This document shows positions 1 through 36,810 of a stretch of DNA of 64,000 nucleotides, piece by piece (within the stretch, counting starts at the first letter, position 1; every line of letters starts with the position of its first letter). The position numbers and the translations under genes are program-made. Origin of the DNA: an uncultured Nitrososphaerota archaeon (lineage in GTDB: Archaea > Korarchaeota > Korarchaeia > Korarchaeales > Korarchaeaceae); the NCBI GenBank assembly GCA_964618805.1, contig CAZUBM010000001.1, positions 96,001-160,000 on the forward strand. Direction: 5' to 3'. Under the pieces are notes generated by a model. That model worked only from the letters and a program-made list of their open reading frames with translations, was not told where the DNA came from and did no database searches.

Positions 1-269
1 GTGAAACTTTGATTTCACGCACCTATTGATCTATCGAATCGAATATAAGAGATCCTTAATTTCGCTCAGAAGCTCAGTAATGAGTATGATGAAAAACAGA
101 TCATGGCCGTCTGGAAGGTGGAAGAATAGGGTTTACAGGAAGTCCCAAAGATTTCAAGGGTTTTGTTGAAGAACTTACCAGAAAGATAGAAGAAATAAGA
201 CGACTATCTCTGTTGTTAGAGTTACCCTTTCTTCTTGACCTAGATTTTTGATCCTTCTACAATCATAAA

Positions 270-530
270 ATGATTTAGCGATAAATACCAAAGCAACGAT
301 CATAAAGAATAGCACCATCTCAAGCTTCTTGATTGTTGTCTCGAGCTGTGAGACCCTCTTGGATTCGGATCCACAGCTCCGAATTTAATAAAACCTTTAC
401 TGGTTCGATATTCTCCACCTTCCAAATCGCGGTACGATAGGAAGAAATGTAAGGTAAAATTCCTTAGTCTGGTGGCTTCTAAGTAAAAAAATACTCGGAA
501 GCCTTCTACTGGTGCTAGCTGTGTCCTCCT
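270..530 (-). pseudogene. C-terminal remnant of a membrane-anchored surface protein (Ig-like strands, coiled coil, TM helix)
   Basis: Manual translation: LAPVEGFRVFFYLEATRLRNFTLHFFLSYRDLEGGEY...GFIKFGAVDPNP, frameshift, KRVSQLETTIKKLEMVLFFMIVALVFIAK; no start codon; boundaries approximate. Confidence 0.4.
324..392. repeat. 69-bp direct repeat, copy 1
   Basis: gcttcttgattgttgtctcgagctgtgagaccctcttggattcggatccacagctccgaatttaataaa, identical to 4393-4461; internal stem gagctgtg/cacagctc. Confidence 0.95.
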
Positions 531-625
531 TCCCTTATGAAGATTCTTTTATTCTCCACATGGGTAGGAATAATTTTGAACCTTAAAAAGCAAGTTGCAG
601 ATTTTTCTATCCCAATTCTTAGAGA

Positions 626-970
626 TTATGATAGAACAAGCTCTTTGAGTATTTCCTCTGCTTTTCTTTTTTGTGTATAATGAATAGATGGGATAAGTTC
701 TTGTGTCTAGTTATCTTGGCGATTGTTTGATTGCTAAGCCTCTTTTAATTGCTGCCCAAGAGATAAAAGCATATCTAAGCGAGTGTTTTCAAGTGTTACG
801 ACGAGATTGCTTAAAGACTCGCATCTTGTGCACCTAAGTTGTTTTATTCTGCATTTCGCTCTCTCAGCTTCAATTAGATTGAAAATACCTCTTAGAAAAT
901 GATAATACAGTCTTGTATTGCTAGCATCAAGTAGATAATATAGTTCTTTATCGGTCTAAGGATAAAAACA
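626..970 (-). pseudogene. Tyrosine recombinase/integrase remnant with several frameshifts
   Basis: Manual translation across 2 frameshifts: HSLRYAFISWAAIKRGLA / QTIAKITRHKNLSHL / HYTQKRKAEEILKELVLS*. These carry the HxxR, H and catalytic Y motifs. HSLR lies at 774-785. Confidence 0.75.
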
Positions 971-1099
971 TTAAATAATCTCTCTCAATCAAATTAATCA
1001 GATGCTTCTTTAATTCTCAGTCTTGCATTAGAAAAGAGGAACTTTAACTAAAGGAATTAAAGTATAAATTCTACAAATATTGACTAATGTAGTTAAAAA

Positions 1100-1642
1100 T
1101 CATCCCTCAGGATACATCTCCAAAGTTACCTTTGCCACTTTCACCCCTAGCTGAGTTAAGTAGTACTTCCCTTCCTCCTCAGCCAACCACCCCTTCTTTA
1201 TCATGTCCTCTATTGTCTCATCCTTCTTAAGCTTCCTTCCCTTCTCGGGACTAGTGGCATCCATCTCAAGGAGTCTAGCTAACAATAAGTCCTTCTCGTC
1301 TGGCTCTGGAAAGAAGCGTTCTCTCAAATACTTCAATTTCTCCTCCCTGCTCATTCCATACAATCTCTTCCTAACTCCTATCTTCCATTCCCTACCTTCT
1401 TTCCAAACATCAACAACTATTCCCTTTTCCTCCAGCCCCTTCTGTACATTACTGATAAGCAACACAGCTTTCAATATTGTAGACCAGCTAGCTGCCACTC
1501 CCATCTTTCTCAGGTCATTTGGCGTTACTACAACACCCTCTGGAAGCTTCTCCAAGACTAGAGGAACGACCTCGCTAAGAGACTTCCTCTCTCCCAGAAC
1601 CTTCCTATGCATATTTCTACACCAACTGCAGATAGTAACCAT
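1100..1642 (-). CDS. Hypothetical protein with C-terminal winged-helix-like segment
   Basis: 180 aa ORF; MIKKGWLAEEEGKYYLTQLGVKVA is typical of a wHTH wing. Confidence 0.7.
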   Translation of the reverse strand: MVTICSWCRNMHRKVLGERKSLSEVVPLVLEKLPEGVVVTPNDLRKMGVAASWSTILKAVLLISNVQKGLEEKGIVVDVWKEGREWKIGVRKRLYGMSREEKLKYLRERFFPEPDEKDLLLARLLEMDATSPEKGRKLKKDETIEDMIKKGWLAEEEGKYYLTQLGVKVAKVTLEMYPEG

Positions 1643-1747
1643 TAAAGAACCAATCTCTGACTACTTACACCCTTCTCCTTACCCTCACTATCTTACAAAA
1701 CTAAAAGAATATTTAAATATAGCCAAATTTAATTTCATAATTGTAAA

Positions 1748-2017
1748 ATGATGGACCTTAAAGACTATGAGCTTGAAGTTCTCAAAAGGATGCTAAACGA
1801 GGGATTCATATTAAATAGTTATACTTCTATAGAAAATATTGAAAGCAAAATAAAATGGAAAGAGATTGCCCGTAAGTATAAGGTTAGAAGGGGATTCAAA
1901 CGAGTAGCAAGAAGCTTAGTCAAAAAAGGATATTTAACAGACCGCGGTAAGAGCACAGCAGTCTTATCTCTTACAAAAGATGGTGTAAAAGTGGCTTTAG
2001 CTCTTTTAGAAGATTAA
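1748..2017 (+). CDS. Small basic winged-helix-like protein
   Basis: 89 aa; ARSLVKKGYLT...LSLTKDGVKVA; divergent from 1100-1642. Confidence 0.7.
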   Translation: MMDLKDYELEVLKRMLNEGFILNSYTSIENIESKIKWKEIARKYKVRRGFKRVARSLVKKGYLTDRGKSTAVLSLTKDGVKVALALLED

Positions 2018-2442
2018 TTGCATTCTATAAATTGGCTACGCCACCCATAAAAATTGAATGCCTTTTTAAAATAATTGCACTTTTTTACATAATATTATTA
2101 TTAAATAATTTTCTTTATCTCCACTTAATTATTATTTACAATAATAAGAATTGATTTTCTAGAGCAAAATCCCTCAAAAATAAGAGTTTCTGTCAAAAGG
2201 GATTCTTGGCTAAAAAGCTTAGGTGTGCTAAGGGAACTTGTTAGGAGATTTAAGAATTAGCTGAGAGAGATTTAGCACGCGCTAAACCTCTTATATACTC
2301 TTAAATCACCTTGAGGGTTTTCCTGTCTCTACGGACTTTATCAAAAGTACTCGGAAGGAGCGGAAAGCTCCTTTTATATGTTTACTTCATAAGGTTCTTC
2401 TCTTGCTTACATACTGGAAGTCTCTACATTGCATTTATCATT

Positions 2443-4062
2443 CTAATACGCTTCAGTTAGTGAGGAAATTGGGTGCCACTTATGCTCATCCACATCGATT
2501 CTAACATCCAAGGGCTCGATCCTTTTATCTGGATTAAATCCATGCTTGATTCCCCACTTTCTTAAGTGCTCGACAACTAAGCGTGCTCCGAATCTTGCTA
2601 GCGGATAAAGGGGTAGCAGGAACGGATTTCCCTTCATAACCATCGGCAGACTTTTCACTACTTCTCTATAGAGATGCCTCCAAGCATAATAGAGGTGCAG
2701 GAACTGGCCTTCAGTTATCATCTCCTCAACATTAAAGAATTCCTTATCTTTAAGCAAGCCCATGGGGACAAATGCTAATGGAGTTACTGTGAAGTGTGCC
2801 CTATTGCCAAGCTTCTTTTCAAGCTCTTTTTTCATTGTGAGGATTAGCTGAGCAGTCATTATCTCGTCTTCCTCAGTCTCTCCAGGGAGACCTAAGATAG
2901 TTGTGTAAGCTGGGAACCAGTAGTTCTTGTTGAGGACGTAAGTGCCGTTTAACACAACCCACGGCCACTCCTCTGGCGAGAAGGGTTTCACCTTGTTGGT
3001 CATGTACATTCCGATTAGCCTCGGCGAGGCAGTCTCAAGGCCCACTTGGATTCCGACCCAGTGCCTCTTGTTTGCTCCTACAATTCTTGATATCTCCTTG
3101 ATCATTCCTGGGTTTGCTAAAGCTCCAGCAATCGAGCCGTGAGTCGGATTAACGTTTTTCGTATACTTGACGGCCATCTCAAAGAGCTCTATCACAGCTT
3201 CAGCATTTGGATAAAAGTTCTTCTTATCATCGACCTTGTACAGGAAGATGTCCTCGCTGTGGAGCCATGCATGATCTATGCCCGCCGTGACGTTCAGCTT
3301 TATCTCCTCTTCAATTTTCTCAAGGGGAATGTAGCGGACCACTCTTAAGTTTGGCTCGCAGAAGCGGCATCCTCTCCCGCATCCACGCATTACTTCAACA
3401 AGGCCTTTATATGAGGGTGCGACTATGGTCGGAATTTCATCAGCTCTTGGGCAGTTTTTAATGTATATCGTTTCATCAGCATTGCCACCCTCTATGTCTC
3501 TGAAGACATCTCCGGCAACATGATCTGCTTCCCCAATAATTATATGGTCAATCTTGAGCTTTTCTCTTTCTTCCTTCCTAAAGTCAACCTGCCACGCCCC
3601 TGGACCTCCAACGATGAGCTTAAACTTGTAGCCTTTTCTCTCCCTAAGGGCATTTATCTTCTCAACTAGCTGGAAGAACTTAAACTTCGTATAGCTTGTC
3701 CAATTCCCACCGTTTGTAAATATCATACTCACCGGAGCTAAGCCCATAGGATCCATCTCGGAAAGTGCTACTATTGTTGTCTTCTCATCTATGAACTGCC
3801 CTATCTTCCTTGGGTGAGCAACTACGACTTCCTCCCTCTTGAATCCTTGAGCAAGCAGTGCAGCTTCTATTTTCCTTAGTCCATAGGGTGCTACCGTTAA
3901 GATTCCGTTGTTGTCTGGAATTTGAGAATCAAGAATTCTAAAAACCCAGCTTGGCACTTTGTCGAAGGGAGCACAGCCGAAAAAATCCAATAAAGGAACA
4001 TCGTGATAAGTGCTTGTCAACGTCTCATCAGTGCTTAGCACAATCCTTGCCATCACTATCAC
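2443..4062 (-). CDS. B12-binding radical SAM protein, Grs/Gms (GDGT ring synthase / GMGT synthase) family-like
   Basis: IVLSTD, APYGLRKIEA, VGGPGAWQ, EVMRGCGRGCRFC (CX3CX2C), GLETAS. Confidence 0.8.
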   Translation of the reverse strand: MIVMARIVLSTDETLTSTYHDVPLLDFFGCAPFDKVPSWVFRILDSQIPDNNGILTVAPYGLRKIEAALLAQGFKREEVVVAHPRKIGQFIDEKTTIVALSEMDPMGLAPVSMIFTNGGNWTSYTKFKFFQLVEKINALRERKGYKFKLIVGGPGAWQVDFRKEEREKLKIDHIIIGEADHVAGDVFRDIEGGNADETIYIKNCPRADEIPTIVAPSYKGLVEVMRGCGRGCRFCEPNLRVVRYIPLEKIEEEIKLNVTAGIDHAWLHSEDIFLYKVDDKKNFYPNAEAVIELFEMAVKYTKNVNPTHGSIAGALANPGMIKEISRIVGANKRHWVGIQVGLETASPRLIGMYMTNKVKPFSPEEWPWVVLNGTYVLNKNYWFPAYTTILGLPGETEEDEIMTAQLILTMKKELEKKLGNRAHFTVTPLAFVPMGLLKDKEFFNVEEMITEGQFLHLYYAWRHLYREVVKSLPMVMKGNPFLLPLYPLARFGARLVVEHLRKWGIKHGFNPDKRIEPLDVRIDVDEHKWHPISSLTEAY

Positions 4063-4392
4063 TTCTCATGTAAAAGCAAGGGCATCAAGGAAAATTTTAA
4101 GGCTTCTCTAAGTTTTTCCTTATTTGTTTCTTCAGAACTTTTTAAATAAAATTTCTAACGGAATGCTCTGAAAAACTATTTTGGTAATAAGCGACGTTAC
4201 CGTAAAATCTCCATTCGCCATGTGCCCTATCTCACCTTTAAATGCTGCTAAGATTATTTTGTAACAAAATAGAGTGTGTCAAAGCATTATCAAAGAATAG
4301 ACCTCGTTGCGAAATATTATAACATGTTATAAGAGATAATCCCGATGAGGGCAGAAGCAAGGTATAAGAGCGTAGCAATCCTGCTAGCGCGC

Positions 4393-4461
4393 GCTTCTTG
4401 ATTGTTGTCTCGAGCTGTGAGACCCTCTTGGATTCGGATCCACAGCTCCGAATTTAATAAA
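4393..4461. repeat. 69-bp direct repeat, copy 2
   Basis: Identical to 324-392; its left edge overlaps gcgcgcgc at 4387-4394. Confidence 0.95.
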
Positions 4462-4566
4462 GGAAATAGGGGGATTATTCTAAGCCCGAGGTATGGAATT
4501 GAGGATCTGCAAAATCCAACAGGCCAGCCCTAACAAGCTCAGATGAATGAATGCTTAGACTATGCA

Positions 4567-4986
4567 TCAAACAACTCTTTTTATCCCAGGAAATCTGTCA
4601 AAATCCCTATCAAACGAGTAAATCTCATTTATTTTCTGCTTCTGCATTATAATGTATGCTAAGGCGTCATTTACCCCCACATCAAATTCCTTAGCTACCT
4701 CCAAAGAATTTAGGTAATCTTCTCCGCTCACGCTCAACACCTTAATGTTCTCCTTCAGGAGGATTGCTTCTTCAATCTCTAGAGCCTCTTTTAAAGGCAT
4801 TCTATCCTCTAGAATGTTTGCTATCTCGCTGAAGTGAGAAGTTGACATTAATACCTCTTCCCCTTCGTTAACGAGCCTGATTATCTCCTTTGCCCGCTTC
4901 TTTATCGCTAACTCATGTTCCCTAAGCTTTCTCTTTGTTTTTAGGAAAGCATGTATGAAGACGCTTGCGTCTATGAACCTAGTCAA
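4567..4986 (-). CDS. vapC: PIN-domain toxin VapC
   Basis: FIDASVF, E, GVNDAL, YSFDRDFD acidic PIN motifs; overlaps the upstream antitoxin. Confidence 0.9.
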   Translation of the reverse strand: MTRFIDASVFIHAFLKTKRKLREHELAIKKRAKEIIRLVNEGEEVLMSTSHFSEIANILEDRMPLKEALEIEEAILLKENIKVLSVSGEDYLNSLEVAKEFDVGVNDALAYIIMQKQKINEIYSFDRDFDRFPGIKRVV

Positions 4987-5224
4987 CCTTTCTCAACTCC
5001 TTCCTCACCTTATGCCAATCCGAGAGGTCGCTTTTGATATCAACTTCTATAACATCAAAAAATTTGGTTAGATCTAATGGCTTCTCTGGCCTAATCTCTA
5101 TAACTTCTCCCCTTATCTTCATCAAGATCCTTGGTTTTTTGAGATATTTCTTCCTCCAACTTTTTGGAATTACTATCCTCCCCTGCTTATCTACCTCTTT
5201 AATAACCACTTCCATATTTTTCAT
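4979..5224 (-). CDS. vapB: AbrB/MazE/SpoVT-family antitoxin
   Basis: VDKQGRIVIPKSWR motif; coupled to the PIN gene. Confidence 0.88.
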   Translation of the reverse strand: MKNMEVVIKEVDKQGRIVIPKSWRKKYLKKPRILMKIRGEVIEIRPEKPLDLTKFFDVIEVDIKSDLSDWHKVRKELRKVD

Positions 5225-5934
5225 CCTAAAAGAAAAATAATTCCATAAAAATTAAATTTTACCATTTTTATATCTCATTACCAAACTTATTGCTTAGCTT
5301 CGTTGAAATGGACCCACAAAATCCTGTTAACATATTTTCATTACTACGCGGCTCATATGCATCTCAGTCGTAGTAATAGTTGAGTTTTAATGGATTTATC
5401 ATGAAAAGAGGCAAGGTGTCCAAGTACTAAAGCTAAATGCTACTAGAAGATTTTTCCACCTCTTTTCTTTCTAAGTGCCTTTTCATTACTGTATGGAGCG
5501 CCGCGCGCGGTATGTTGGATAAATCCTATTATTAAAAACAGCTTTGTGAAAAATAGTTTGAATCAACAAGACTCTAAGACTCACAAGAAAAATTCGCTTT
5601 TATCATAAGTATTTTTGCTCTAATATTTACGGCTTGGAACCCAATAAAAGAAAATCTAATTCCCTGGATTAAAGCAATTGGTGAGACTGATTATCACGTT
5701 GAGTCTTTTGAATTCACTTTGAAGTTTAGGATAGATCTTCCCCTAAACATATCTCTATAACATATTTTGGAGACTATGTTAACCTTCCTTCAGAAGTTAA
5801 TCTTGGAAAATCATTTAAAGTCAAGTGCAGGTCAAGAAATTTAGGATGAAAGAGCTGAAACTGAAATCCCTATTCTAAATATGCCCCAATTTCGTGGGCT
5901 AAATTTAATAATGTGGGTCCATAATTTTCGTGAA

Positions 5935-6174
5935 ATGTCCTACGTAGTCCTCGTAGACTCAAAGGGAAGAGTAACGCTTCCAAGGGATGTGAGGAGGAGC
6001 TTGGGGGTAAAACCTGGAGATAGATTTAGGATCACTGTGGTTGGAAGTAGGATAGTCCTAGAGAAGGCTGAAGACCCGTTTGAGGTCCTCAACAGGATCT
6101 TGAAGGATGTAAGGTTCGACAGGAAGGCAAGGGAAAAGGCGGAGGAGGAGAGGAGGAGATTTCAATGGCTCTAA
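5935..6174 (+). CDS. AbrB-family antitoxin (likely start MSYVVLV; C-terminus probably altered)
   Basis: VDSKGRVTLPRDVRRSLGVKPGD. Confidence 0.8.
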   Translation: MSYVVLVDSKGRVTLPRDVRRSLGVKPGDRFRITVVGSRIVLEKAEDPFEVLNRILKDVRFDRKAREKAEEERRRFQWL

Positions 6175-6401
6175 AGGCGATAGAGGACATTATAAGGGGA
6201 TATACGAAACCCTACTTCCTCAAGCTAACTTTTAGCCACTCCTCCTTAGCTGCAGAACTCAGGAAGAGGCATGGCCTAACCTTCTTCGACTCCCTTCATG
6301 CATCAGTAGCTCTTCTTGAAAACCTGACCTACGTTGGAAATGACGATAGGGTGAGAAAGGCGGTTGAGCTGGAAGGAGGTAAGGCAAGGCCCCTCAGGTA
6401 A
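6165..6401 (+). pseudogene. N-terminally truncated PIN toxin
   Basis: Only the C-terminal half is present: LAAELRKRHGLTFFDSLHASVAL...GNDD; the N-terminal D-containing strand is missing. Confidence 0.75.
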
Positions 6402-6418
6402 TGTAACTTATACAACGG

Positions 6419-6655
6419 GCTGACATCGATGAGACTGTGTACTCACGCAGCCCATAAGTTTCACTTGAGAGGTTCTCAAATGGTCCAGTTAGGATAATGG
6501 CTTTGAGGTCGGATGAGCATCTAAAGGCAATGGGACGTGCCCCTCTAGCTCAGGTATTCGTGGACCTTTGGAATATACCAACCTGGTATGCTAGAGAGTT
6601 TATGCTGGCGGTAAGGGATAAGATAGATGGAATTCTGGCAGAATTGGGCTACTGA
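6419..6655 (+). pseudogene. C-terminal remnant of an AbiEi-like antitoxin/regulator
   Basis: Manual translation ADIDETVYS..*..APLAQVFVDLWNIPTWYAREF...LGY*; overlaps the start of the downstream nucleotidyltransferase. Confidence 0.6.
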
Positions 6656-7238
6656 GAGGAGCTGGAAGGCCCTTCTGGGGCTAAGGAGGAGTTACGAGTT
6701 CACTTTGCTTGAAGGGTGGGCCATTTACCTCTATACCAAGACCATGAAGTCCGTTGACATCGACCTAATAATGGAAAGGGATCAGCTCTGGAGATTTTCT
6801 AGCGAGTATCCGCTGAAGAAGACGGAGTTCTTTAGAAAGTATGAGGCCAGAGTCGAAGGAGTTGCCGTAGACATCTACGTGCCGTATTATTCTAGGCTGG
6901 CGATCCCGCCTGAGGATGTAACTAAGATGACTTTGATTGTGGAGGGCTTCAAGGTTCCAGAGCCTGAAGTTCTCTTGATCCTTAAGCAGGACGTAGCCTC
7001 TTCTAGAATAGCTAGCGTAAAGGGAACAAAGGAAAGAGTTGATATCTTAGCCCTACTACTTAGGGCCGAGCTGGACTTCGACGAGTACAGGGATTTGTTA
7101 AAGAGGTACGGACTGTTGCAATTTAGGGAAGAGCTAAGAGATATTGTCTCAAGGGCCAGTAAGGAATTCTCATATCTGGGGATAGAGGATCCTAGAAGGA
7201 TAAAACCGCTTAAGAAGTCTTTTCTAAGCAAGATATGA
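6627..7238 (+). CDS. Nucleotidyltransferase, AbiEii/type IV TA-like
   Basis: EGWAIYLY...SVDIDL (G-G-x-A / DxD-like), LLILK, KERVDI. Confidence 0.7.
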   Translation: MEFWQNWATERSWKALLGLRRSYEFTLLEGWAIYLYTKTMKSVDIDLIMERDQLWRFSSEYPLKKTEFFRKYEARVEGVAVDIYVPYYSRLAIPPEDVTKMTLIVEGFKVPEPEVLLILKQDVASSRIASVKGTKERVDILALLLRAELDFDEYRDLLKRYGLLQFREELRDIVSRASKEFSYLGIEDPRRIKPLKKSFLSKI

Positions 7239-7420
7239 TCCTCTTTTTATCATTTGGCGTTGCTAACTTGACAAAATTCGGAAGACTCAGGCGTTGCCGC
7301 TTTCTAGAAGATAACGGTAATCGTTACCTTAGAACTAGTCCACATTGTTTAAGTGGAACTAACTGTCCAAAAAATGGGTATACTAAATTATTGAGTGGGA
7401 AAAATGCTTCGCAGACTGGC

Positions 7421-7540
7421 ATGAATGTCGTTGAAATGGACGACCGCGGCAGGGTTCTAATTCCAGCAGATTTGAGGCGTAAGCTGAAGAGCAGGCGCTT
7501 CCTCCTGATCTACAATTCCAAATTGATAAGGATGGTTGAA
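7421..7540 (+). pseudogene. Truncated AbrB-family antitoxin
   Basis: MNVVEMDDRGRVLIPADLRRKL inside ORF 7235-7678. Confidence 0.65.
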
Positions 7541-7712
7541 TTTCAACGCCTGCCAAGGCCTTTCTGGAGGCTGATGAGATTCACGCGAATATGGTACTCT
7601 TTAGGTCTTGGACCCATTGTAGGGCGATGGATCCTCCTTTCGATAACTAAAGGACGCAAGCCTGGAAAGCCCACGTAGTACCTCTTCAGTACGAGGAGGA
7701 AGAAGATGTGAT
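7540..7712 (+). pseudogene. Fragment of a deazaflavin-dependent nitroreductase (DDN) family protein
   Basis: WYSLGLGPIVGRWILLSITKGRKPGKP, frameshift, VVPLQYEEE. Confidence 0.6.
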
Positions 7713-7773
7713 AAAAAGTAGTACTCAATGAAAAAGAAATTTATCAGCTTTAATTATCCTCTTTCCTATCTTC

Positions 7774-8747
7774 TTGAGGGCAATGAGCTTCAAAGTTCTA
7801 ATCGCGGAACTCATCCATGAGGATGGAGTTGACATCCTTCGGAAGCAAGTTGAGGTTATTGAGCTCCCACCAGAGAGCACGATTGAGGATCTGAAGAGGG
7901 CAATCGTTGACGTAGATGCTCTAATATCAAGGGGCTTCATCAAAGTCACCAAAGAAGTTTTGAAAGCAGCCAAAAGGTTGAAAGTCATCGTGGTTCATGG
8001 TGTTGGAGTCGATCACATCGACCTTGAGGCAGCAAGAGAGCTGGGAATCAAAGTGATAAACACACCAGAGGCCCTGACAAACACTGTTGAGGAATTCACC
8101 GTTGGAATGATCTTCTCACTAATCAAGCGCATCCCTCAGGCAGATAAGGCTGTTAGAAGAGGAGAATGGCACAGAAAGTTCAGCAACCTCGTTGGGATTG
8201 ATCTTGCGGGCAAGACTGTTGGAATAATAGGCTTGGGAAGGATAGGTAGCGCTGTTGCAAGGATGTTGAAGCCATTCAACCCTAGGCTGGTCTACTATGA
8301 CCTAAGGAGGAGGTACGACCTTGAGGGGGAGTTGGGCATAGAGTTCAAACCGCTTCATGAACTTCTGAAGGAGTCAGACGTCATAAGCATACACGCCACC
8401 CTAACAAAGGATACTTACCACACATGATCTCCTACAGAGAGTTCGAACTCATGAAGGATGGTGTCTGCATCGTTAACACCGCTAGAGGAGCAATTATAGA
8501 GGAGAGAGCCCTCCTAAGCTATCTTAGGTCAGGTAAGGTGAGAGGAGCAGCCCTAGACGTTTTCGAAACTGAGCCATTGCCCGATGATAGCTCCCTTTTA
8601 GGTTTCAAAAACCTTATTCTAACCCCTCACTTGGCAGCAAGCAGTTCAGATGCCCTAAAGAGGTTAGCTGTTGATGCTGTGAAAAGAACTCTCGAGGGAC
8701 TAGGGATTTGTCATCAACGCACCCATAGAAGCCAAGACGATCGTTAG
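7774..8747 (+). pseudogene. D-isomer-specific 2-hydroxyacid (phosphoglycerate-type) dehydrogenase, split by a 2-nt slip near 8420
   Basis: HGVGVDHID, GIIGLGRIG, VNTARG, ALDVF, TPHLA; the two ORFs join if one AC is removed from taccacacatg. Confidence 0.85.
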
Positions 8748-8916
8748 CACCCACGTCTTGGAATATTGAGCTTCTTGCATAGTAATCTCAACCTTTTTGC
8801 GCGCGCTTAATGACAACGAATATCTCTTATCGTTGATCTCTATGGCATTGCTCTTTCTTATGAAGAATAGATGCATGCCTTCAGCAACAGTGATCTTCAT
8901 TTCTTAATCTAGCCCT

Positions 8917-10098
8917 TTAGCGCGCTGAAAGCCTTGTTTGCGCAAAAATTGAGAAAATAAATGCTCCAATTCCAGAAAGAAGAAAAAGAGAAGGATATCC
9001 GACAGAGGAAATCAGAAATCCAGAGACAGCCTGGGAAAGAGTATTTCCGCCATGAAATCCAAGCATAAGAAGACCTATATCTGCCCCATAGCTTCGCTTC
9101 CCAGCTATTCTTGCGGTAACCATCTCATAAGCTGCAATTATTGCTCCAGTAGCTGATCCTAAGACTAAGATAAGTGGTAGAACACTACAGTCCTTTGCAA
9201 AACCAAAAACAAGGACACCTACAAAGGAGTAGATGCCGGACAAGAGAAGGAAATTCTTATAGTTGATCATTAAAGAGAGCAGGTAAAGTGTGATCCCTGA
9301 AGCCAATGATTGTAGGCTTAGAAGCATACCTATCCTTTCAATTGGGAGGTTCATGGATTTAAGGAAAAGCGGAACGACATATGACCTAACGATTCCCACA
9401 GAGAATCCAGGAACGCATAGTAGAGCAACGAATGCCAGAAAAATCGAGCCCTTTCCCCTGAGATCTATTGCTCTGAAGACATCCTTTATTTCAGGGCTTC
9501 TTCTTTTAACTGTCTCAGGCAAAATCAGGGAGAGGATCATCATTGCTGCGCTAAGGGGAAGAAGGACAAGTAATGAGGGTCTGTAGAGTATCTTGGCAAC
9601 AAGAAACCCAGCAAGAACATTGCCAATTGCTCCAAAAATTGCAGTAACTGCTCTCATATTAAAAAGAGACTTTGCACTTCCTCTCCTTTGTTCTAAAAAA
9701 TATGCTCTGTTAACAGCCCATATGCAAGCTGCCTGAACTGCGCCCAGCAATCTCCCAACTGCAAATCCTATTGGAGTCCTCGCAAGGTAATAGGTAAATA
9801 GGGAAAGGGCGCTTCCTACTCCATTGAGAAAATAGAATGGCTTTCTACCAACGAAATCTGAGAGAGCTCCTAGGAATAGCCTAGTAATCTGGAAAAGGAA
9901 CGGCTGTAGAGAGTAGACTATACCTACTTGTTGAATAGAGAGGCCTTCCTCTCTCATCAGGATGGGTAATATCGTTGAAAGTGCTCCACCTTGCACCATG
10001 TAAATCGACTGGATTGTAAGAGCTTCAAATTCTCCCTTCCTACCATCACTCCTTTCCCGCTTTGGACTAAGTTCAACTGGTATATCAGCCACTAACAT
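8917..10098 (-). CDS. MFS transporter
   Basis: About 12 hydrophobic segments; GALSDFVGRK motif A. Confidence 0.85.
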   Translation of the reverse strand: MLVADIPVELSPKRERSDGRKGEFEALTIQSIYMVQGGALSTILPILMREEGLSIQQVGIVYSLQPFLFQITRLFLGALSDFVGRKPFYFLNGVGSALSLFTYYLARTPIGFAVGRLLGAVQAACIWAVNRAYFLEQRRGSAKSLFNMRAVTAIFGAIGNVLAGFLVAKILYRPSLLVLLPLSAAMMILSLILPETVKRRSPEIKDVFRAIDLRGKGSIFLAFVALLCVPGFSVGIVRSYVVPLFLKSMNLPIERIGMLLSLQSLASGITLYLLSLMINYKNFLLLSGIYSFVGVLVFGFAKDCSVLPLILVLGSATGAIIAAYEMVTARIAGKRSYGADIGLLMLGFHGGNTLSQAVSGFLISSVGYPSLFLLSGIGAFIFSIFAQTRLSAR

Positions 10099-10628
10099 AG
10101 AATTCTGCCTTAGAACTTAAAATACCTTCTTAGTGACTTCTTATCAGAATCCTTTTCATTTTCCTATTTTGATCGGCTTTAACCCTAAAAGCTTAGATGT
10201 AAGGATTCCTAATCAGAAGTTCGTGTGTGTGAGCAGATGGGAAGAGTGCTGTTCTCACTCAGGCAGGCTTTTACATCTCAGGGATCGATGTAGTCTCTCT
10301 GGAAGAGAAGAATAGGGGCCATTGAACTCAAGTTCTTGATAAGGAGAAGAGGGGGAAAGGAGCTCGTTGAGGGCATTGCCTTAAGCCCAGCTGAAAGGCC
10401 ATCTCAGCCTTCATGATCTATGCAGGCTTACTCCTTCTTAACATCTCCATGATATTCATATGGTAAGGAAGATGTCAAGGTGAATCCAGCGTTCTAGGAG
10501 AAGTGTCTATCTCTCATTTATTTGATTCATGATGGCTTTGCTATCAGATATTCGTCAAGTTCACTGCATCTCCAAGATAATGCTGGGATTTCTGGCCAAT
10601 ACGGGCTGGTAGTCTCGACAAAAATGGT

Positions 10629-11684
10629 CTAGCTCACTGAAATCTCCTTAACAAACTCTCTCACCAGCGAAATCGTATTTCTAAGGTCATCTACATGCGT
10701 GATTGCAGCAGGTCCATGGATGTACCTACAAGGAACAGCTACTGTTCCGCTGGGCACTCCAGCCTTCGTCAGATGGATGGCACCAGCATCTGTACCTCCC
10801 GAAGGGACCTTCTTAAACTGGAAGGGTATTGACTTCTCCCTCCCTATCCTGATGAGGGTCTTCAGAACCTTCGGGTGGGTTATAGTAGTCCTGTCAACAA
10901 TGGTCACAACAGGACCAGCCTTGAGCTTTGCAGACATCCTGTGGGGCTTAGTCCCAGGCACATCTGCGGCAAAAGTTCCTTCCAAGGCAAGGGCATAGTC
11001 TGGCTCAACCTGCCAAGCTGCTGTCCTCGCTCCTCTAAGGCCAACCTCTTCCTGCACCGTTCCTACAGCCACAAGATTGTAAGGGGAGTCCTTTAACGCT
11101 TTGAAGACTTCAGCAAGCACGGTACAACCAGCTCTGTCGTCGAAAGCCTTTCCCATGATGTAACCTCCTCCAAGGTCCGCAAACCTAGCGTCGAAAACCC
11201 CAGTTGTCCCTATCTCAACTCCCTTTTCTAAGACCTCCTCCGCACTTCCTGCACCAATGTCTATGAAGAGCTCCTCTATAGGCAGTACCTTCTTCCTTTC
11301 CTCTTCCTTCATTAGGTGAGGCGGCTTTGTCCCTATTATACCCTTAACGAAGCCCCTTTCTCCCTTAAGAAGGATCCTCTGTCCTGGCATTATGTTGGTA
11401 GTTATGCCTCCTAGCGTGTGGAAGCGGAGGAACCCTTCATCCTCTATGAAGGTAATTAGGAAGCCTACTTCATCCATGTGAGCTGCAAGCATCACCTTTG
11501 GGTAGCTGTCCTTCCCATGATGGTAGAAGAAAATGTTTCCTAGCTTGTCAACCTTAACCTCATCTGCTTTCTCCTCCAACTCCTCTCTCAGAACGTTGCG
11601 TACTTCCTCCTCATTCCCAGGAGGACCAAACGCATTTGAAAGCCTCTCCAAAAGCCTAATTTCCTCAGACAAATCGGTCACCAA
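10629..11684 (-). CDS. M42 family aminopeptidase (TET/FrvX-like)
   Basis: AAHMDE, KAFDDR, QEEVG, GGTDAG, RYIH. Confidence 0.95.
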   Translation of the reverse strand: MVTDLSEEIRLLERLSNAFGPPGNEEEVRNVLREELEEKADEVKVDKLGNIFFYHHGKDSYPKVMLAAHMDEVGFLITFIEDEGFLRFHTLGGITTNIMPGQRILLKGERGFVKGIIGTKPPHLMKEEERKKVLPIEELFIDIGAGSAEEVLEKGVEIGTTGVFDARFADLGGGYIMGKAFDDRAGCTVLAEVFKALKDSPYNLVAVGTVQEEVGLRGARTAAWQVEPDYALALEGTFAADVPGTKPHRMSAKLKAGPVVTIVDRTTITHPKVLKTLIRIGREKSIPFQFKKVPSGGTDAGAIHLTKAGVPSGTVAVPCRYIHGPAAITHVDDLRNTISLVREFVKEISVS

Positions 11685-12174
11685 TCCAGTTATCGACTGA
11701 TTTCGCTATATACTTTTCCAAACCTCCTTTAAGGTCCTTAATGCCATTTGCATTTAGTCAAAACGCAGAGGATCTAATGACCGATCGCCTTAAGCATGTC
11801 TATATGTGAAAGGGTGCAGGGGGGGTAATCGTGGTAATACATCGTTACGGGCCATCATGTTGGAATTCTAACCCCTAATTACAAGGAAAAGAATTATTTT
11901 CCACCTAATCTGGAAGTTTGAAGTTAACTATAGAAAAACAATGAAATAACAAGCTATCACTAAATTTCGATATCTCTAGGTGCTCATTTTCTATATTTCA
12001 GGAGATGCTTTCTTTTGGCTTGAAAAGGAGAAATTGGGATTGTAACATGAAACAAAAAGCAAATTCCAAGCAAATGTTCATGAAAACTGTAAAAATTAAT
12101 TTAAAGAGCTAACAAATGGCTTTTAGCGGACTTTAAAGTGAGCTGGTAAAAGCACCGAAAATTTCACCCATTAG

Positions 12175-16522: not shown

Positions 16523-17968
16523 ATGTCTCATAAGCTAGATGAAAAGAAAAGCATCAATTTTGGGATTCCCGATCTTATTGCATCCCTTAGAAATGTACTA
16601 GGGAATAGGTTTCTTAGATATTTTCTAAGAAATATAGGTCAGAAAGAGCTAGAATGGATTTTAGGAGTTTATTCAGGCTTATACAAGCCAAGAAATTATA
16701 AGGAAGAATTTCTCCTAGATGTAATATCTAAGACGCTTTCAAAAGTCTTACCTAAGTTTGGTGTTAAAGAGGAAGCCCTTAAGTGTGCCCTTAAGGATGG
16801 TTACATGAGAAAAGGGGTCGCAAACATACTAATGGGCATAGCTGAGAATGGGATCACAAGGCCCCAAATGCTTCATGCTCCTTTCATGGTGGTATGGGAT
16901 TTCACGAGACAATGCAACCTTAGATGTAAGCACTGTTATGCAGATGCAAGTCCCGAACCAGCACCAGATGAATTAAGTCTAAAGGAAAAGCTTGAGGTCC
17001 TAAGACAGTTAGATGAGGCCGGGGTAGCAGCTATCTCCTTTTCAGGAGGAGAGCCGCTTATTAACAAGGACTTCTGGATTGTTGCTAAGAAAGCAGCAGA
17101 ATTGGGCTTTTATGTGAGTGTGGCTACAAATGGAACCCTTTTAACCCCAACAGTTGCTCTAAAGCTGAAGAAAATTGGAGTGAGATATGTGGAGATAAGC
17201 CTGGATTCATCTAGGCCTGAAGAGCATGATGAGTTCAGGGGATTGCCTGGCGCATGGAGAAGAGCAGTTGAAGGCATAATAAACTCTAAGAACGCTGGAT
17301 TAAGTGTTGGGATAGCTACTACTGTCACAAAAATCAATTATAAGAGGATTCCAGAGCTAATATCACTTGCTAGGAAATTAAAAGTAGAAAAATTCATTGC
17401 GTTCAACTTCATTCCTACGGGAAGGGGAAAAGAAATCATGGAATTGGATCTCTCTCCAGAAGAAAGGGAAAAGCTTCTGAATTACCTGTATAAAGAACTC
17501 ATTTCTGGAGATCTCCAAGTATTTTCGACAGCTCCCATGTACGCAGTGGTGTCCGTGAAACATGCAAGGGAGGAGAAGAAAATAACTCCCACTCACTTTG
17601 CAGAACTTTCAATTCCAGAGGAGTACATTCCAGCTGGACTTGCCTTAGCAGAATTTCTAGGAGGGTGTGGGGCAGGAAGAATTTACTGTTCAATTGAGCA
17701 AAATGGAGACATACAGCCCTGCGTTTTCCTTCCAATCAGGGTAGGGAACGTGATAAAAGATGGTTTCATGAATGTTTGGAAGAATAGTCCGATCATGAAG
17801 AAGCTTAGAGATAGGGACAACTATGGCTGTACTTTCTGCCAGTACAAGTACATATGCGGGGGATGTAGAGCAAGAGCCTATGCTTATTATGGCGACATAG
17901 CGGCCCCCGATCCAAGCTGTTCCTTTAACGAGGTACTTTGGAAGAGGATTCTAGTAAATGCAAGGTAA
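16523..17968 (+). CDS. Radical SAM protein with SPASM domain (NirJ/Ahb/MftC-like)
   Basis: CNLRCKHC, SGGEP, CGAGRIYC...QPC, CTFC...CGGCRARAY. Confidence 0.92.
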   Translation: MSHKLDEKKSINFGIPDLIASLRNVLGNRFLRYFLRNIGQKELEWILGVYSGLYKPRNYKEEFLLDVISKTLSKVLPKFGVKEEALKCALKDGYMRKGVANILMGIAENGITRPQMLHAPFMVVWDFTRQCNLRCKHCYADASPEPAPDELSLKEKLEVLRQLDEAGVAAISFSGGEPLINKDFWIVAKKAAELGFYVSVATNGTLLTPTVALKLKKIGVRYVEISLDSSRPEEHDEFRGLPGAWRRAVEGIINSKNAGLSVGIATTVTKINYKRIPELISLARKLKVEKFIAFNFIPTGRGKEIMELDLSPEEREKLLNYLYKELISGDLQVFSTAPMYAVVSVKHAREEKKITPTHFAELSIPEEYIPAGLALAEFLGGCGAGRIYCSIEQNGDIQPCVFLPIRVGNVIKDGFMNVWKNSPIMKKLRDRDNYGCTFCQYKYICGGCRARAYAYYGDIAAPDPSCSFNEVLWKRILVNAR

Positions 17969-35217: not shown

Positions 35218-36810
35218 TTAATAAGACTTGAATTTCCCAATTACAAGTCTATCCGAAGCTACAGACAGTATTTCAGACCTAAAAACATCACCTACTTTTA
35301 AATCTCTCGGTACACTTCTAACTAGAACGGTAGGGCCTTCTCTGAAAGGATAGGCCACCCTAAGTCTTCTCCTTCGTCCTGGGGCCAAGACAACCTTCAA
35401 ATCCTTGCCAATTAGTTCCTTTTTCCTTTCCAAATTGAATTTCCTAGCAGCCCTTTCAATTATCCTTGAGGCCGCATCCCTTGAAGAAGAAGGCCCTTCA
35501 GGCATGTTTTCAAATGCAGAGCACGGAAGAGGCTTAAATCTGTATACTGTAATTTTCTCTACTCCAATAAAGTACAACTTCTCCATCATGTTTGCTGTTT
35601 TTCTTGCAGTCTCCTTGGTCTGTCCCGGAAGACCGTGAATGAAGTAGACATAAACTCGCAATCCAGCTTTTATCGCAGATCTAATGGCCTCGACATCTTT
35701 AGATGGAGCAGAAGGCCTCCCTAACAGTGTTGCATGCCTATCATCTCCTGTTTCGATCCCCACATGTATTACTGCCCCAGGTAGATAGTTTGAAAGCAGA
35801 GATATTGCTTCTTCGGTCAAAAGGGACGCCTTAGCGTTCTCAACTCCGACGTACACCTCTCCTTTCCTCACCTCTGGTATTGATGTGACAGTAGAGAGAA
35901 GCTCTTCGATGGCTTTTAGGTTCGGCTTAGGTTCTGATGGATGAGTTGGTACATCAACGATGTCCTCTCTCCCATATTCAAGGAAATCTGCTCCGCTAAG
36001 TATTATCCTTTTAGCTCCGTTTTTTATCAAACCCCTTATCTCCTCAATTAGCATTTTCAGATCTCTGGACTTTGGATATCCATAAACAGCAGGGATTGAA
36101 CAATATCCACATCCAGGAGGGATTCCTTGAGGGCAAATGAGTCTTAAAGGAAGGTTAGTACCAAAACAAGCCCTACAAGACTTACATTTTCTCATATCTG
36201 CCATGATTAAAGCTCTGTTGTAGTTAGAGCAGCCTCTTACGACCTCTACGTAAACTCTGGATGCCTTAAAATGGGGTATTGAGGTGTAGTGGCGTATTGC
36301 ACGAAAGGAAGGCCTATACCTATTGAAATCCTCCTTTTTCAGTATTTTGTGGCCAGTTAAGTAGATTTTACCGTCCATAACGAGAATTAGATTAGAAATA
36401 TCCCTCAATTCCTCTAACTTTGCCTCATCCAAGCCAAGGCCTAGCAGAGAATCGACGGCAACCTCTCCTTCCCCAAATATCCCAATATCATACCCTAATT
36501 TGGCTATGACAGATGGATCACACGTGATGGGCCCCCCTAATACCTTGAATGAGGTTTTAAAGGCTCTTGATATCCTTTTAGCGGCCTTAAAGTCCATAGT
36601 CATAGCGCTAACCATCACTACATTGCTTTTCGAGAATTTAGAGGGTTTTCTAAGGACATCCTCTACCCTTACAATTCTATAAGGGAGGCCGTGCTTCTCA
36701 AGTATTCCAGCTATGGTTCTAGGACCCGCTCCTATGACATCAAGTGCAGACCTTCTTGTCCCCTCTCCTGCTGCTAGAGCATCAATTAAAAGGACTTCTG
36801 ACTCAAGCAC
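35218..36810 (-). CDS. B12-binding-like radical SAM protein with split motif and C-terminal TRAM-like domain
   Basis: VLGGP, GEGE, EVVRGC-X39-CGYC, GIETG, IHGLPGQT, TRAM-like tail. Confidence 0.85.
   Translation of the reverse strand: MLESEVLLIDALAAGEGTRRSALDVIGAGPRTIAGILEKHGLPYRIVRVEDVLRKPSKFSKSNVVMVSAMTMDFKAAKRISRAFKTSFKVLGGPITCDPSVIAKLGYDIGIFGEGEVAVDSLLGLGLDEAKLEELRDISNLILVMDGKIYLTGHKILKKEDFNRYRPSFRAIRHYTSIPHFKASRVYVEVVRGCSNYNRALIMADMRKCKSCRACFGTNLPLRLICPQGIPPGCGYCSIPAVYGYPKSRDLKMLIEEIRGLIKNGAKRIILSGADFLEYGREDIVDVPTHPSEPKPNLKAIEELLSTVTSIPEVRKGEVYVGVENAKASLLTEEAISLLSNYLPGAVIHVGIETGDDRHATLLGRPSAPSKDVEAIRSAIKAGLRVYVYFIHGLPGQTKETARKTANMMEKLYFIGVEKITVYRFKPLPCSAFENMPEGPSSSRDAASRIIERAARKFNLERKKELIGKDLKVVLAPGRRRRLRVAYPFREGPTVLVRSVPRDLKVGDVFRSEILSVASDRLVIGKFKSY

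Follow-up and report, generated by a model that had tools for sequence, protein, structure and literature searches.

Results

A 4-kb insert bounded by two perfect direct repeats

The window, a 64,000-nucleotide stretch of archaeal DNA, opens on a small insert that lies between two 69-bp direct repeats and holds an intact ring synthase gene, two winged-helix genes, a truncated regulator gene and a putative recombinase remnant. The repeats form the left (324..392) and right (4393..4461) insert boundaries; they are unstranded features, 100% identical to each other and offset by 4069 bp. As the first-pass annotation had reported, they are perfect, and we found that the whole 2.18-Mb genome contains no further copy. 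The repeat holds a hairpin with an 8-bp stem, and its minus-strand RNA fold reached a z-score of -4.26, with none of 200 shuffles as good. It matches no Rfam family, and no tRNA target was found, either by ARAGORN (0 genes in positions 1-12000) or by Rfam (no tRNA at E-values up to 1). Copy 1 had also been suspected of sitting inside a coding remnant that continues on both sides. This suspicion found no support: the open frame through copy 1 (548-303) has no family match, and the same frame is closed immediately upstream of repeat 2.

In the likely source run, the depth of the 69-bp unitig was 53.6, compared with 25.8 in the left flank, 24.2 inside the insert and 30.7 in the right flank. The depth of the repeat is thus about twice that of the insert (2:1), indicating that the repeat is present in two copies and the insert in one. 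The genome's own contig (265,938 bases) runs through both repeats, and independent contigs from two other samples and studies start in the insert, cross repeat 2 and continue into the right flank, one (X3) spanning 4033-4519 and the other (X4) 4224-4658, with a 75-bp deletion. The contigs of the likely source run itself break at the repeat. In 35 further genomes of the family we found neither another copy of the repeat and its flanks nor an empty site. Since the region itself is not conserved in those genomes, the missing empty site, which had been proposed as a check, says little either way. The empty-site joint was likewise absent from the contigs of four runs, although contigs cannot show absence.

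An intact GDGT ring synthase gene

The gene grsA' (2443..4053, minus strand) encodes a protein of 536 aa followed by a stop codon. The listed ORF started from a GTG at 4062 and comprised 539 aa, while homologs and DNA homology both start at the ATG at 4053; the ORF previously described as an intact B12 radical SAM is indeed intact, with its length corrected to 536 aa. The protein shares 76% identity over its full length of 536 aa with BAD84356.1 of T. kodakarensis, which we take to be TK0167 from its locus numbering, and 79% with WP_062369925.1 of T. guaymasensis, whose accession directly precedes that of Gms. Pfam detected Radical_SAM (E 4.1e-10), and the CX3CX2C motif is present. The three motifs on which the family assignment was originally based (APYGLRKIEA, GGPGAWQ and EVMRGCxRxCxFC) were all recovered and are conserved, together with CX3CX2C, over 80 aligned Grs-like rows. 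The B12-binding family PF02310 was undetected by Pfam in the window protein; one relative, P0015, has it in a precomputed list, and close relatives are named "B12-binding domain-containing" by their sources. The ORF has a dN/dS of 0.135 against the nearest Thermococci relative and is, by this measure, under purifying selection.

Judged from its sequence, the window gene is a Thermococcales-type GDGT ring synthase, belonging to Grs only. It shares with GrsA' of T. kodakarensis and grs of T. guaymasensis the same length (535-536 aa), the CX3CX2C and N-terminal motifs and the clade, while it differs from the Thermococci genes in having a Korarchaeote as host and in standing alone, without neighbouring gms and gmm. 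The identities and the clade placement support the initial view of a tetraether-lipid-modifying, Thermococcales-like enzyme. GDGT-1 to -4 are given as the product of TK0167 (bioRxiv 10.1101/2025.10.20.683597), and a Delta-grs strain is described as Delta-TK0167 (PMC12107092). The literature names GrsA and GrsB of S. acidocaldarius (Saci_1585 and Saci_0240) as the founding ring synthases and places them in the same B12-type radical SAM group (PMC11214058).

The first-pass annotation had assigned the protein to a joint Grs/Gms group. The Grs part of this assignment stands and the Gms part does not, since Gms is a SPASM/Twitch enzyme of another subfamily and the two do not make up one family. Gms is described as a SPASM/Twitch radical SAM enzyme with three clusters, in a separate subfamily (PMC11214058, PMC11186832). 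Gms (T. guaymasensis WP_062369926.1, P. furiosus PF0647) resembles the window protein in using radical SAM chemistry on GDGT chains, and its gene shares the Thermococci cluster with grs, but its subfamily differs, and in the window protein Pfam found no SPASM domain. At an E-value limit of 1e-5, BLASTP did not match the window protein to the Gms-like protein encoded in a Thermococci cluster (L053:1967-3472, called Gms-like from position and domains only), which has none of the three motifs named above. In view of the missing SPASM domain and BLASTP match, the window protein is ruled out as a Gms. The host has a Gms-like gene of its own, separate from grsA', at 16523-17968.

The other genes of the insert are korarchaeal

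The two small ORFs noted earlier as wHTH-like both gave winged-helix models, tandem in ORF180 and single in ORF89. On the basis of its homologs and model, ORF180 (1100..1642, minus strand, 180 aa) belongs to a rare korarchaeal accessory family: homologs with 57%, 45% and 43% identity occur in three other Korarchaeaceae genomes and a partial one in a further genome (4 of 35 genomes matched), and only 3 relatives were found in a collection of 5.8 billion proteins. Its model has a pLDDT of 75.9 and weak ScpB/Nse1-like fold matches. ORF89 (1748..2017, plus strand, 89 aa), predicted from its model (pLDDT 88.7) to be a small winged-helix protein, forms with ORF180 a divergent pair that is conserved in three genomes (G002, G015 and G009). 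Its best fold matches include pNOB8 AspA, STIV F93, SSV1 F-93 and MarR, at E-values of 5e-3 to 9e-3. Pfam found no family in either protein, neither gene was found in IMG/VR, and no PF00589 integrase adjoins the pair in the three other genomes that carry it.

Beside repeat 2 lies a cut fragment of a korarchaeal RHH-wHTH gene (4268..4392, plus strand), identified by homology and comprising the promoter and the first 16 codons. It is 84% identical to a sister-species sequence (G002:C10), with the homology ending about 5 bp before the repeat, and 78% identical to an intact gene of the same genome at window positions -575 to -489, some 0.5 kb before the window begins. Taken at the level of sequence, the insert is a mosaic of korarchaeal winged-helix genes, a regulator fragment and a foreign Thermococcales gene. 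The idea that the insert as a whole is a Thermococcales element does not hold, as the likeness to Thermococcales is confined to the gene and roughly 50 nt ahead of it, and the other genes are korarchaeal.

Adjoining repeat 1, we found a putative decayed tyrosine-recombinase remnant (622..955, minus strand). The motifs HSLR, RH and HYT are spread over three reading frames of the minus strand, at 622-788, and by our own count their spacing is that of the genome's XerA-like protein. Five pieces of the remnant gave 0 Pfam matches at E-values up to 10, a six-frame search of the genome for PF00589 did not flag the place, and a read-through in which X marked the breaks had no integrase among its top matches when compared with the genome's 8836 ORFs by local BLASTP. 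Moreover, phmmer of a 73-aa piece against 1.84 billion proteins returned 4 matches, 0 of them integrases. Hence, the motifs behind the earlier call of a frameshifted tyrosine recombinase exist, but four statistical tests lent that call no support.

The ring synthase gene came from a Thermococcus-like archaeon

The host is a hot-vent Korarchaeote, its aEF-2 being 72% identical to that of Ca. Korarchaeum cryptofilum among the named matches, which agrees with the expectation that it would not belong to Thermococcales. Both flanks are syntenic with a same-genus genome, on the left up to about window position 7 and on the right from 7524. In a quick IQ-TREE phylogeny of 80 rows, proposed as a check of the gene's origin, the window protein groups with Thermococcus, apart from the host-lineage homologs. 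It lies deep within the Thermococcus clade, the three smallest marked sets (2, 7 and 14 rows) having SH-aLRT values of 100, 99 and 100, and the marked 34-row Thermococcus clade contains it along with the proteins of T. kodakarensis and T. guaymasensis. Native Korarchaeaceae homologs are 32-33% identical to it and form their own separate clade, and a single korarchaeal clade was rejected by the AU test (p 1.6e-6). Furthermore, no close homolog was found in any of the four other genomes of the genus (71-90% complete), so that the gene is, as first proposed, foreign to the host lineage.

At the DNA level, identity reaches 89% to a Thermococci MAG and does not extend beyond the gene and some 50 nt ahead of it; across Thermococci loci it ranges over 77-89%, for the gene only. 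The GC3 of grsA' is 0.497, compared with a host mean of 0.415 (sd 0.059). The region upstream (4054..4110, minus strand) resembles the promoter and leader of Thermococci grsA in degraded form, with a shared TATA-like box and leader and with indels, as far as about 50 nt ahead of the ATG, a likeness judged by eye and unscored. We consider the transfer of the gene from a Thermococcus-like archaeon to the Korarchaeote solid, and the transfer itself fairly recent.

Discussion

Most archaeal integrative elements target tRNA genes, usually with att repeats and a tyrosine integrase at one end. The locus described here shares with archaeal integrated plasmids and proviruses the foreign DNA between perfect direct repeats, the location in a variable island and a small winged-helix protein with a plasmid- and virus-like fold. 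On the other hand, the insert lacks a verified integrase, a tRNA target and replication or structural genes, it measures only 4 kb, and an empty site was not found. A mobile-element origin is nevertheless plausible, and from the repeats we infer that the gene may have arrived as cargo on an integrative element. Of the original claim to that effect, the intact and retained gene and the repeats proved real, while the integrase is unsupported and the rest of the insert is korarchaeal.

Our best explanation, to which we assign a probability of about 60%, is that the ring synthase gene came from a Thermococcus-like donor and lies in a korarchaeal mosaic insert that integrated as a circle at the 69-bp site. 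The 4,069-bp insert lies in a variable, toxin-antitoxin-rich island. The Thermococcales gene would first have been taken up by a small korarchaeal circle or by an excised island, and the presumed circle would then have joined the chromosome through a single crossover at the 69-bp sequence, duplicating it. This crossover may have been carried out by an integrase or by plain homologous recombination, and mobility functions would have been lost since integration. The insert also includes a decayed, AT-rich stretch of about 700 bp, and the foreign gene keeps a stub of its own promoter. Counting against this explanation, in Thermococci grs sits in a chromosomal gms-gmm-grs cluster beside CarS, off mobile elements; grsA was found in neither a plasmid nor a phage collection.

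A possible, if rather unlikely, alternative is that the same transfer took place without a mobile element, through ordinary homologous recombination of circular or looped DNA from a related korarchaeal strain into the chromosome, at an intergenic sequence of 69 bp common to both. The repeats would then be a by-product rather than attachment sites, and the "integrase" a set of chance motifs in decayed DNA. The unsupported integrase and the missing tRNA target fit such an event, as does the korarchaeal DNA of the insert, whose regulator fragment is nearer to a sister species than to the genome's own copy and therefore points to exchange among korarchaeal strains. However, 69 bp offers little length for efficient homologous recombination, ORF89 has a fold like that of plasmid and virus proteins, and the motif triad, by our own count at canonical recombinase spacing, adjoins repeat 1, where an integrase would be expected.

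Two further alternatives bear on the locus itself. The assembler might have threaded a free circular 4-kb plasmid sharing the 69-bp sequence into the chromosome, and it is true that in a graph with 31-letter words the integrated form is indistinguishable from an empty site plus a circle, and that the source-run contigs break at the repeat. We regard such an artefact as very improbable, given the nearly equal depth of insert and flanks, the two contigs from other studies that cross the right junction and the genome's own contig, which passes both repeats. Still less credible is a gene native to Korarchaeia, or a contig that contaminates the bin from Thermococcales. In the literature, 12 Korarchaeia MAGs are reported to carry Grs homologs (bioRxiv 10.1101/2022.08.15.504015), and one 90%-identity cluster contains a protein labelled Candidatus Korarchaeota. 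Against these readings stand the low identity and separate clade of the native Korarchaeaceae homologs, the AU test, the synteny of both flanks with a korarchaeal sister genome and the korarchaeal genes of the insert.

Returning to integration of a circle at the 69-bp site, we tentatively suggest a broader version, which we consider doubtful: grsA and its promoter stub may form a single-gene module moving between distant hyperthermophile lineages on small integrative elements that use a non-tRNA, 69-bp site, from Thermococcus-like donors to Korarchaeia and perhaps, along similar routes, to M. fervens and an Archaeoglobus. Related proteins occur in Methanocaldococcus fervens (81% identical) and in an Archaeoglobus (68% identical). 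GDGT ring counts serve as proxies for temperature and pH, and grs genes are used to assign them to source organisms. If the module reading were true, membrane-lipid cyclisation would be exchangeable between phyla in a single step, and so would the GDGT ring signals used in geochemistry.

The locus offers a physically bounded, fairly recent cross-phylum transfer, with 89% DNA identity and a known native cluster in the donor, and suggests that ring-making is able to move as one gene. Since a Grs tree out of step with taxonomy has already been published (bioRxiv 10.1101/2022.08.15.504015), our finding illustrates a known pattern and does not change it: it is a clear example of known gene transfer in the Grs family, not a new kind.

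By analogy with its characterised relatives, the enzyme is predicted to introduce, by radical SAM chemistry, cyclopentane rings into the biphytanyl chains of GDGT lipids. The Korarchaeote may make ringed tetraethers by means of a borrowed Thermococcus enzyme. For the enzyme to be active in this host, as we infer, the tetraether synthase Tes would supply the substrate, and given Tes and the native Gms-like gene, the added gene would give ring-bearing tetraethers. The host does have Tes, which matched NF045702 at 709 bits, compared with a cut-off of 450.

Identity of the radical SAM gene

Judging by its sequence, the gene enclosed by the two repeats (2443-4053, minus strand) is an intact GDGT ring synthase gene of the Thermococcales type and not a gms gene. 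Radical_SAM is the sole Pfam domain of its product, a search of NCBIfam gave no specific family for it, and a search of the PDB by sequence, run among the insert genes, returned no relative. In a collection of 5.8 billion proteins we found 1952 relatives, the best named ones belonging to the Thermococcales: Palaeococcus sp. (85% identity), Thermococcus sp. P6 (79%), P. horikoshii (75%) and T. pacificus (73%). Other relatives come from Methanocaldococcus fervens (81%) and an Archaeoglobus sp. (68%), and one protein of the collection, encoded on an 83-kb contig, is 98% identical. Among the ten matches whose 90%-identity clusters were looked up, the T. pacificus cluster includes T. kodakarensis BAD84356.1 and a T. 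litoralis protein, and the Palaeococcus cluster includes T. guaymasensis WP_062369925.1. Over the full 536 aa, the window protein is 79% identical to WP_062369925.1 and 76% identical to BAD84356.1, which, from the locus numbering, we take to be TK0167.

In the available sections of the respective sources, TK0167 of T. kodakarensis is described as a ring synthase with GDGT-1 to -4 as products (bioRxiv 10.1101/2025.10.20.683597), and its deletion as the Delta-grs strain (PMC12107092). T. guaymasensis is reported to carry grs and gms (product WP_062369926.1) in one cluster, and Gms to be a SPASM/Twitch enzyme of a different subfamily from Grs (PMC11214058 and PMC11186832, parts of the text). Given the adjacent accession number, WP_062369925.1 would be the grs product encoded next to gms.

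The first-pass annotation had assigned the protein to a joint Grs/Gms group on the basis of three motifs (APYGLRKIEA, GGPGAWQ and EVMRGCxRxCxFC). Pfam detected no SPASM domain in the window protein, BLASTP gave no match between it and the Gms-like protein of a Thermococci cluster, and that Gms-like protein lacks all three motifs. Therefore, the group should simply read Grs. This half of the assignment is upheld by the 76-79% identity and by the conservation of the motifs across 80 aligned Grs-like sequences, while the Gms half falls. The gene is also intact, as had been claimed.

Transfer of the gene into the Korarchaeote

We consider the transfer of this ring-synthase gene into the Korarchaeote well supported. 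The host itself is korarchaeal, since the best named matches of the genome's own aEF-2 are Candidatus Korarchaeum cryptofilum and Korarchaeum sp. (72%), with relatives lacking a name at 92% and 75%. None of the four other genomes of the genus (71-90% complete) holds a close homolog of the window gene (best E 2.5e-4 to 2.8e-4), and the other genera of the family encode a different Grs-like protein, 32-33% identical to the window protein by BLASTP.

Phylogeny points the same way and confirms the earlier impression of a Thermococcales-like gene in an unlike host. We computed a quick LG+G4 tree of 80 hand-chosen sequences (matches 1-30, every fourth of 31-120, nine named cluster members and 17 genome or metagenome loci), leaving out GrsA and GrsB of S. 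acidocaldarius. The window protein and its 98% twin fall inside Thermococcus, the closest named sequence in the tree being that of Thermococcus sp. M39. SH-aLRT values are 100, 99 and 100 for the three smallest starred sets that contain the window protein (2, 7 and 14 rows). The native korarchaeal Grs-like proteins form a separate clade. Forcing all korarchaeal rows, a group defined after the tree was seen, into one clade cost 164.6 log-likelihood units (AU p 1.6e-6).

The nucleotide identity of the gene to five loci from Thermococci or metagenomes is 89%, 86%, 86%, 80% and 77%, with BLAST homology confined to 2441-4053; reading by eye, we recognised a degraded version of the TATA-like box and leader of the donors, extending ~50 nt upstream. 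The gene has a GC3 of 0.497, as compared with a mean of 0.415 (sd 0.059) for host genes and 0.53-0.62 for the donors' genes. Compared with the nearest locus, it shows a dN/dS of 0.135, which indicates purifying selection on the gene. In the Thermococci, the grsA locus (found in 22 of 81 genomes sampled) has the order MMPL, Gms-like, B12 radical SAM, grsA, two small ORFs, MarR and CDP-archaeol synthase, consistent with the published gms/grs cluster. The Korarchaeote received a single gene only.

Transfer within the Grs family and the presence of Grs homologs in Korarchaeia have already been reported (bioRxiv 10.1101/2022.08.15.504015, sections available). The word "mobile" does not occur in the main text of that preprint, and "horizontal gene transfer" appears in PMC12107092 in the reference list only.

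Some further loci deserve mention. A 1,967-bp contig (L020) from a MAG labelled Thermoproteales (G052) bears a partial grsA, 84-85% identical and with one in-frame TGA. It has in common with the window ~33 nt of flank past the stop codon, which suggests the same post-transfer lineage. This cassette lineage may therefore recur in a different bin as L020, or the contig may be mis-binned, as binning is unreliable at 1,967 bp. In two Thermococci loci (L017 and L053), the 3' end of grsA (~20 nt, stop codon included) recurs ~60-75 nt downstream, before the next gene; this is a small local duplication. Finally, the Korarchaeote genome has a second Grs-like gene (contig C12, L015:1522-2961), whose 479-aa product is 37-40% identical to the window protein, retains all three Grs motifs and forms a lone long branch in the tree. 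A search of the four other genomes of the genus did not find this gene. Most of the Atlas clusters nearest to it are from Bathyarchaeota, and it may be a second acquisition.

Repeats and composition of the insert

The perfect 69-bp direct repeats noticed at first pass are real features of the assembly: they lie at 324-392 and 4393-4461 with a spacing of 4069 bp, and are the only two copies in the genome (2,176,148 bases in 62 contigs, 93.7% complete). Such identity cannot have arisen by chance. The repeat contains a hairpin with an 8-bp stem, and the RNA fold of its minus strand is unusually stable (z -4.26, 0 of 200 shuffles as good), whereas that of the plus strand is not (z -1.94). ARAGORN found no tRNA genes in 1-12000, and Rfam gave nothing at the repeat and two chance-level matches elsewhere in the same interval (E 0.55 and 0.77). 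A search of IMG/VR did not find the 37-nt hairpin core of the repeat.

We checked the assembly on contigs rather than raw reads. The assembly graph of the likely source run breaks at the repeat, with depths of 25.8 in the left flank, 53.6 in the repeat, 24.2 in the insert and 30.7 in the right flank. These values fit two copies of the repeat and one of the insert in each genome, although by themselves they do not distinguish integration from an empty site with a separate circle. Two runs, from two other samples and two other studies, provided contigs that connect the insert, via repeat 2, with the right flank, one matching 4033-4519 (X3, 6 mismatches and 4 gaps) and the other 4224-4658 (X4, with a 75-bp deletion). 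Since both span repeat 2, the right junction is real and present in related strains; in both runs 1-1062, with the left junction, was without cover, which carries no weight either way. No joint of an empty site or of a circle was seen in the contigs, which cannot show absence.

The insert begins, after repeat 1, with ~700 bp lacking long ORFs, followed by ORF180 (1100-1642, minus strand, 180 aa), ORF89 (1748-2017, plus strand, 89 aa), the radical SAM ORF (2443-4062, minus strand) and, at the edge of repeat 2, a short gene fragment. The latter (4268-4392) is an RHH-wHTH regulator gene reduced to its promoter and 16 initial codons, and breaks off ~5 bp short of repeat 2. The genome's intact copy of this gene (contig C1, 95426-95793) is located ~0.5 kb upstream of the window start. 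The fragment matches the gene of the sister species at 84% identity and this intact copy at 78%. Therefore, the insert is a mosaic of korarchaeal DNA that acquired a single gene from the Thermococcales, and not a Thermococcales element.

Synteny with the sister genome of the same genus (G002) extends on the left, along its contig 10, up to ~7 and resumes on another contig from 7524 on. Thus, 7-7500 is a variable island, which includes VapBC-type and AbrB/PIN modules and a nucleotidyltransferase-like gene. To the right of the insert, 4567-7238 harbours a PIN gene with an AbrB/MazE-like partner, then a second AbrB with a PIN fragment; this toxin-antitoxin-like run, typical of a variable island, also has a DUF6036 nucleotidyltransferase-like gene.

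Origin of the repeats

The first-pass annotation had proposed the gene to be cargo of an integrative element, with a frameshifted tyrosine recombinase between the repeats. A triad of motifs (HSLR, RH, HYT) is indeed present next to repeat 1, with the spacing of the genome's XerA-like protein by manual count. On the other hand, every statistical test of the putative remnant (622-955) failed. Pfam gave no match on five pieces at E up to 10, and a six-frame search of the genome with PF00589 found five matches elsewhere and none at the remnant. In tblastn of the genome's four integrase-like ORFs against 250-1150, no match was below E 0.05 and none was collinear, and the read-through with X at the breaks had an unrelated best match (E 0.13) among 8836 ORFs. 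Across 40 genomes of the class, a 73-aa piece matched only itself and one other sequence (E 0.08). With 1.84 billion proteins as the target, phmmer gave four matches (one 55-aa fragment and three of repeat type), none an integrase by Pfam. Nor did 393-1100 match the phage and plasmid collections by blastn. The recombinase is thus not borne out. Elsewhere in the genome (C4:44696-46801, L037 and L038), the Pfam match of a 702-aa XerA-like tyrosine recombinase is in two parts ~420 aa apart, split just after HxLRH, which looks like an intein inside the recombinase.

The two small wHTH-like ORFs fared better, as both are modelled with winged-helix folds: ORF180 as a tandem winged-helix protein, and ORF89 with pNOB8 AspA, STIV F93, SSV1 F-93 and MarR proteins among its best matches (E 5e-3 to 9e-3). 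They are a rare korarchaeal accessory pair: of 35 other family genomes, four have ORF180 and three of these four have both genes, and the big protein collection contains only three relatives of ORF180.

Taken together, the repeats are best explained by a mobile element. This origin is favoured by their perfection and uniqueness, the variable island, the foreign cargo, the winged-helix folds of ORF89 and ORF180 and the motif triad. Against it stand the failed integrase tests, the lack of a tRNA target, the absence of a PF00589 integrase from the contigs carrying the ORF180/ORF89 pair in the three genomes searched, and the absence of both ORFs from IMG/VR and PHROGs. Searches of plasmid and phage collections likewise did not find grsA. 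In a search of 35 other family genomes for an empty site, both repeat-plus-flank queries matched their own genome only, apart from two chance-level matches (E about 0.007-0.009). Of the integrative-element claim, the repeats and the foreign cargo stand, but no integrase was verified and neither a tRNA target nor an empty site was found. The joining of a circular korarchaeal fragment by plain homologous recombination is a serious alternative.

Tetraether synthase and probable lipid-modifying genes of the host

The host encodes a tetraether synthase (Tes; NF045702, 709 bits against a cut-off of 450) and a Gms-like gene, and therefore the GDGT substrate should be present. With 76% identity to a characterised enzyme, the window protein would be expected to act as a ring synthase in this host. 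The Gms-like gene (16523-17968, plus strand) has a radical SAM/SPASM product of 481 aa, which shows 61% identity with the Thermococci Gms-like protein across 466 aa. Homologs are present in 33 of 36 family genomes, counting its own. Located ~12 kb from the acquired grsA, this gene probably encodes a GMGT synthase native to the host. Furthermore, a 530-aa radical SAM protein (35221-36810, minus strand), with a weak match to a B12-binding domain and a faint one to a Gmm-like protein, may be another lipid-tailoring enzyme.
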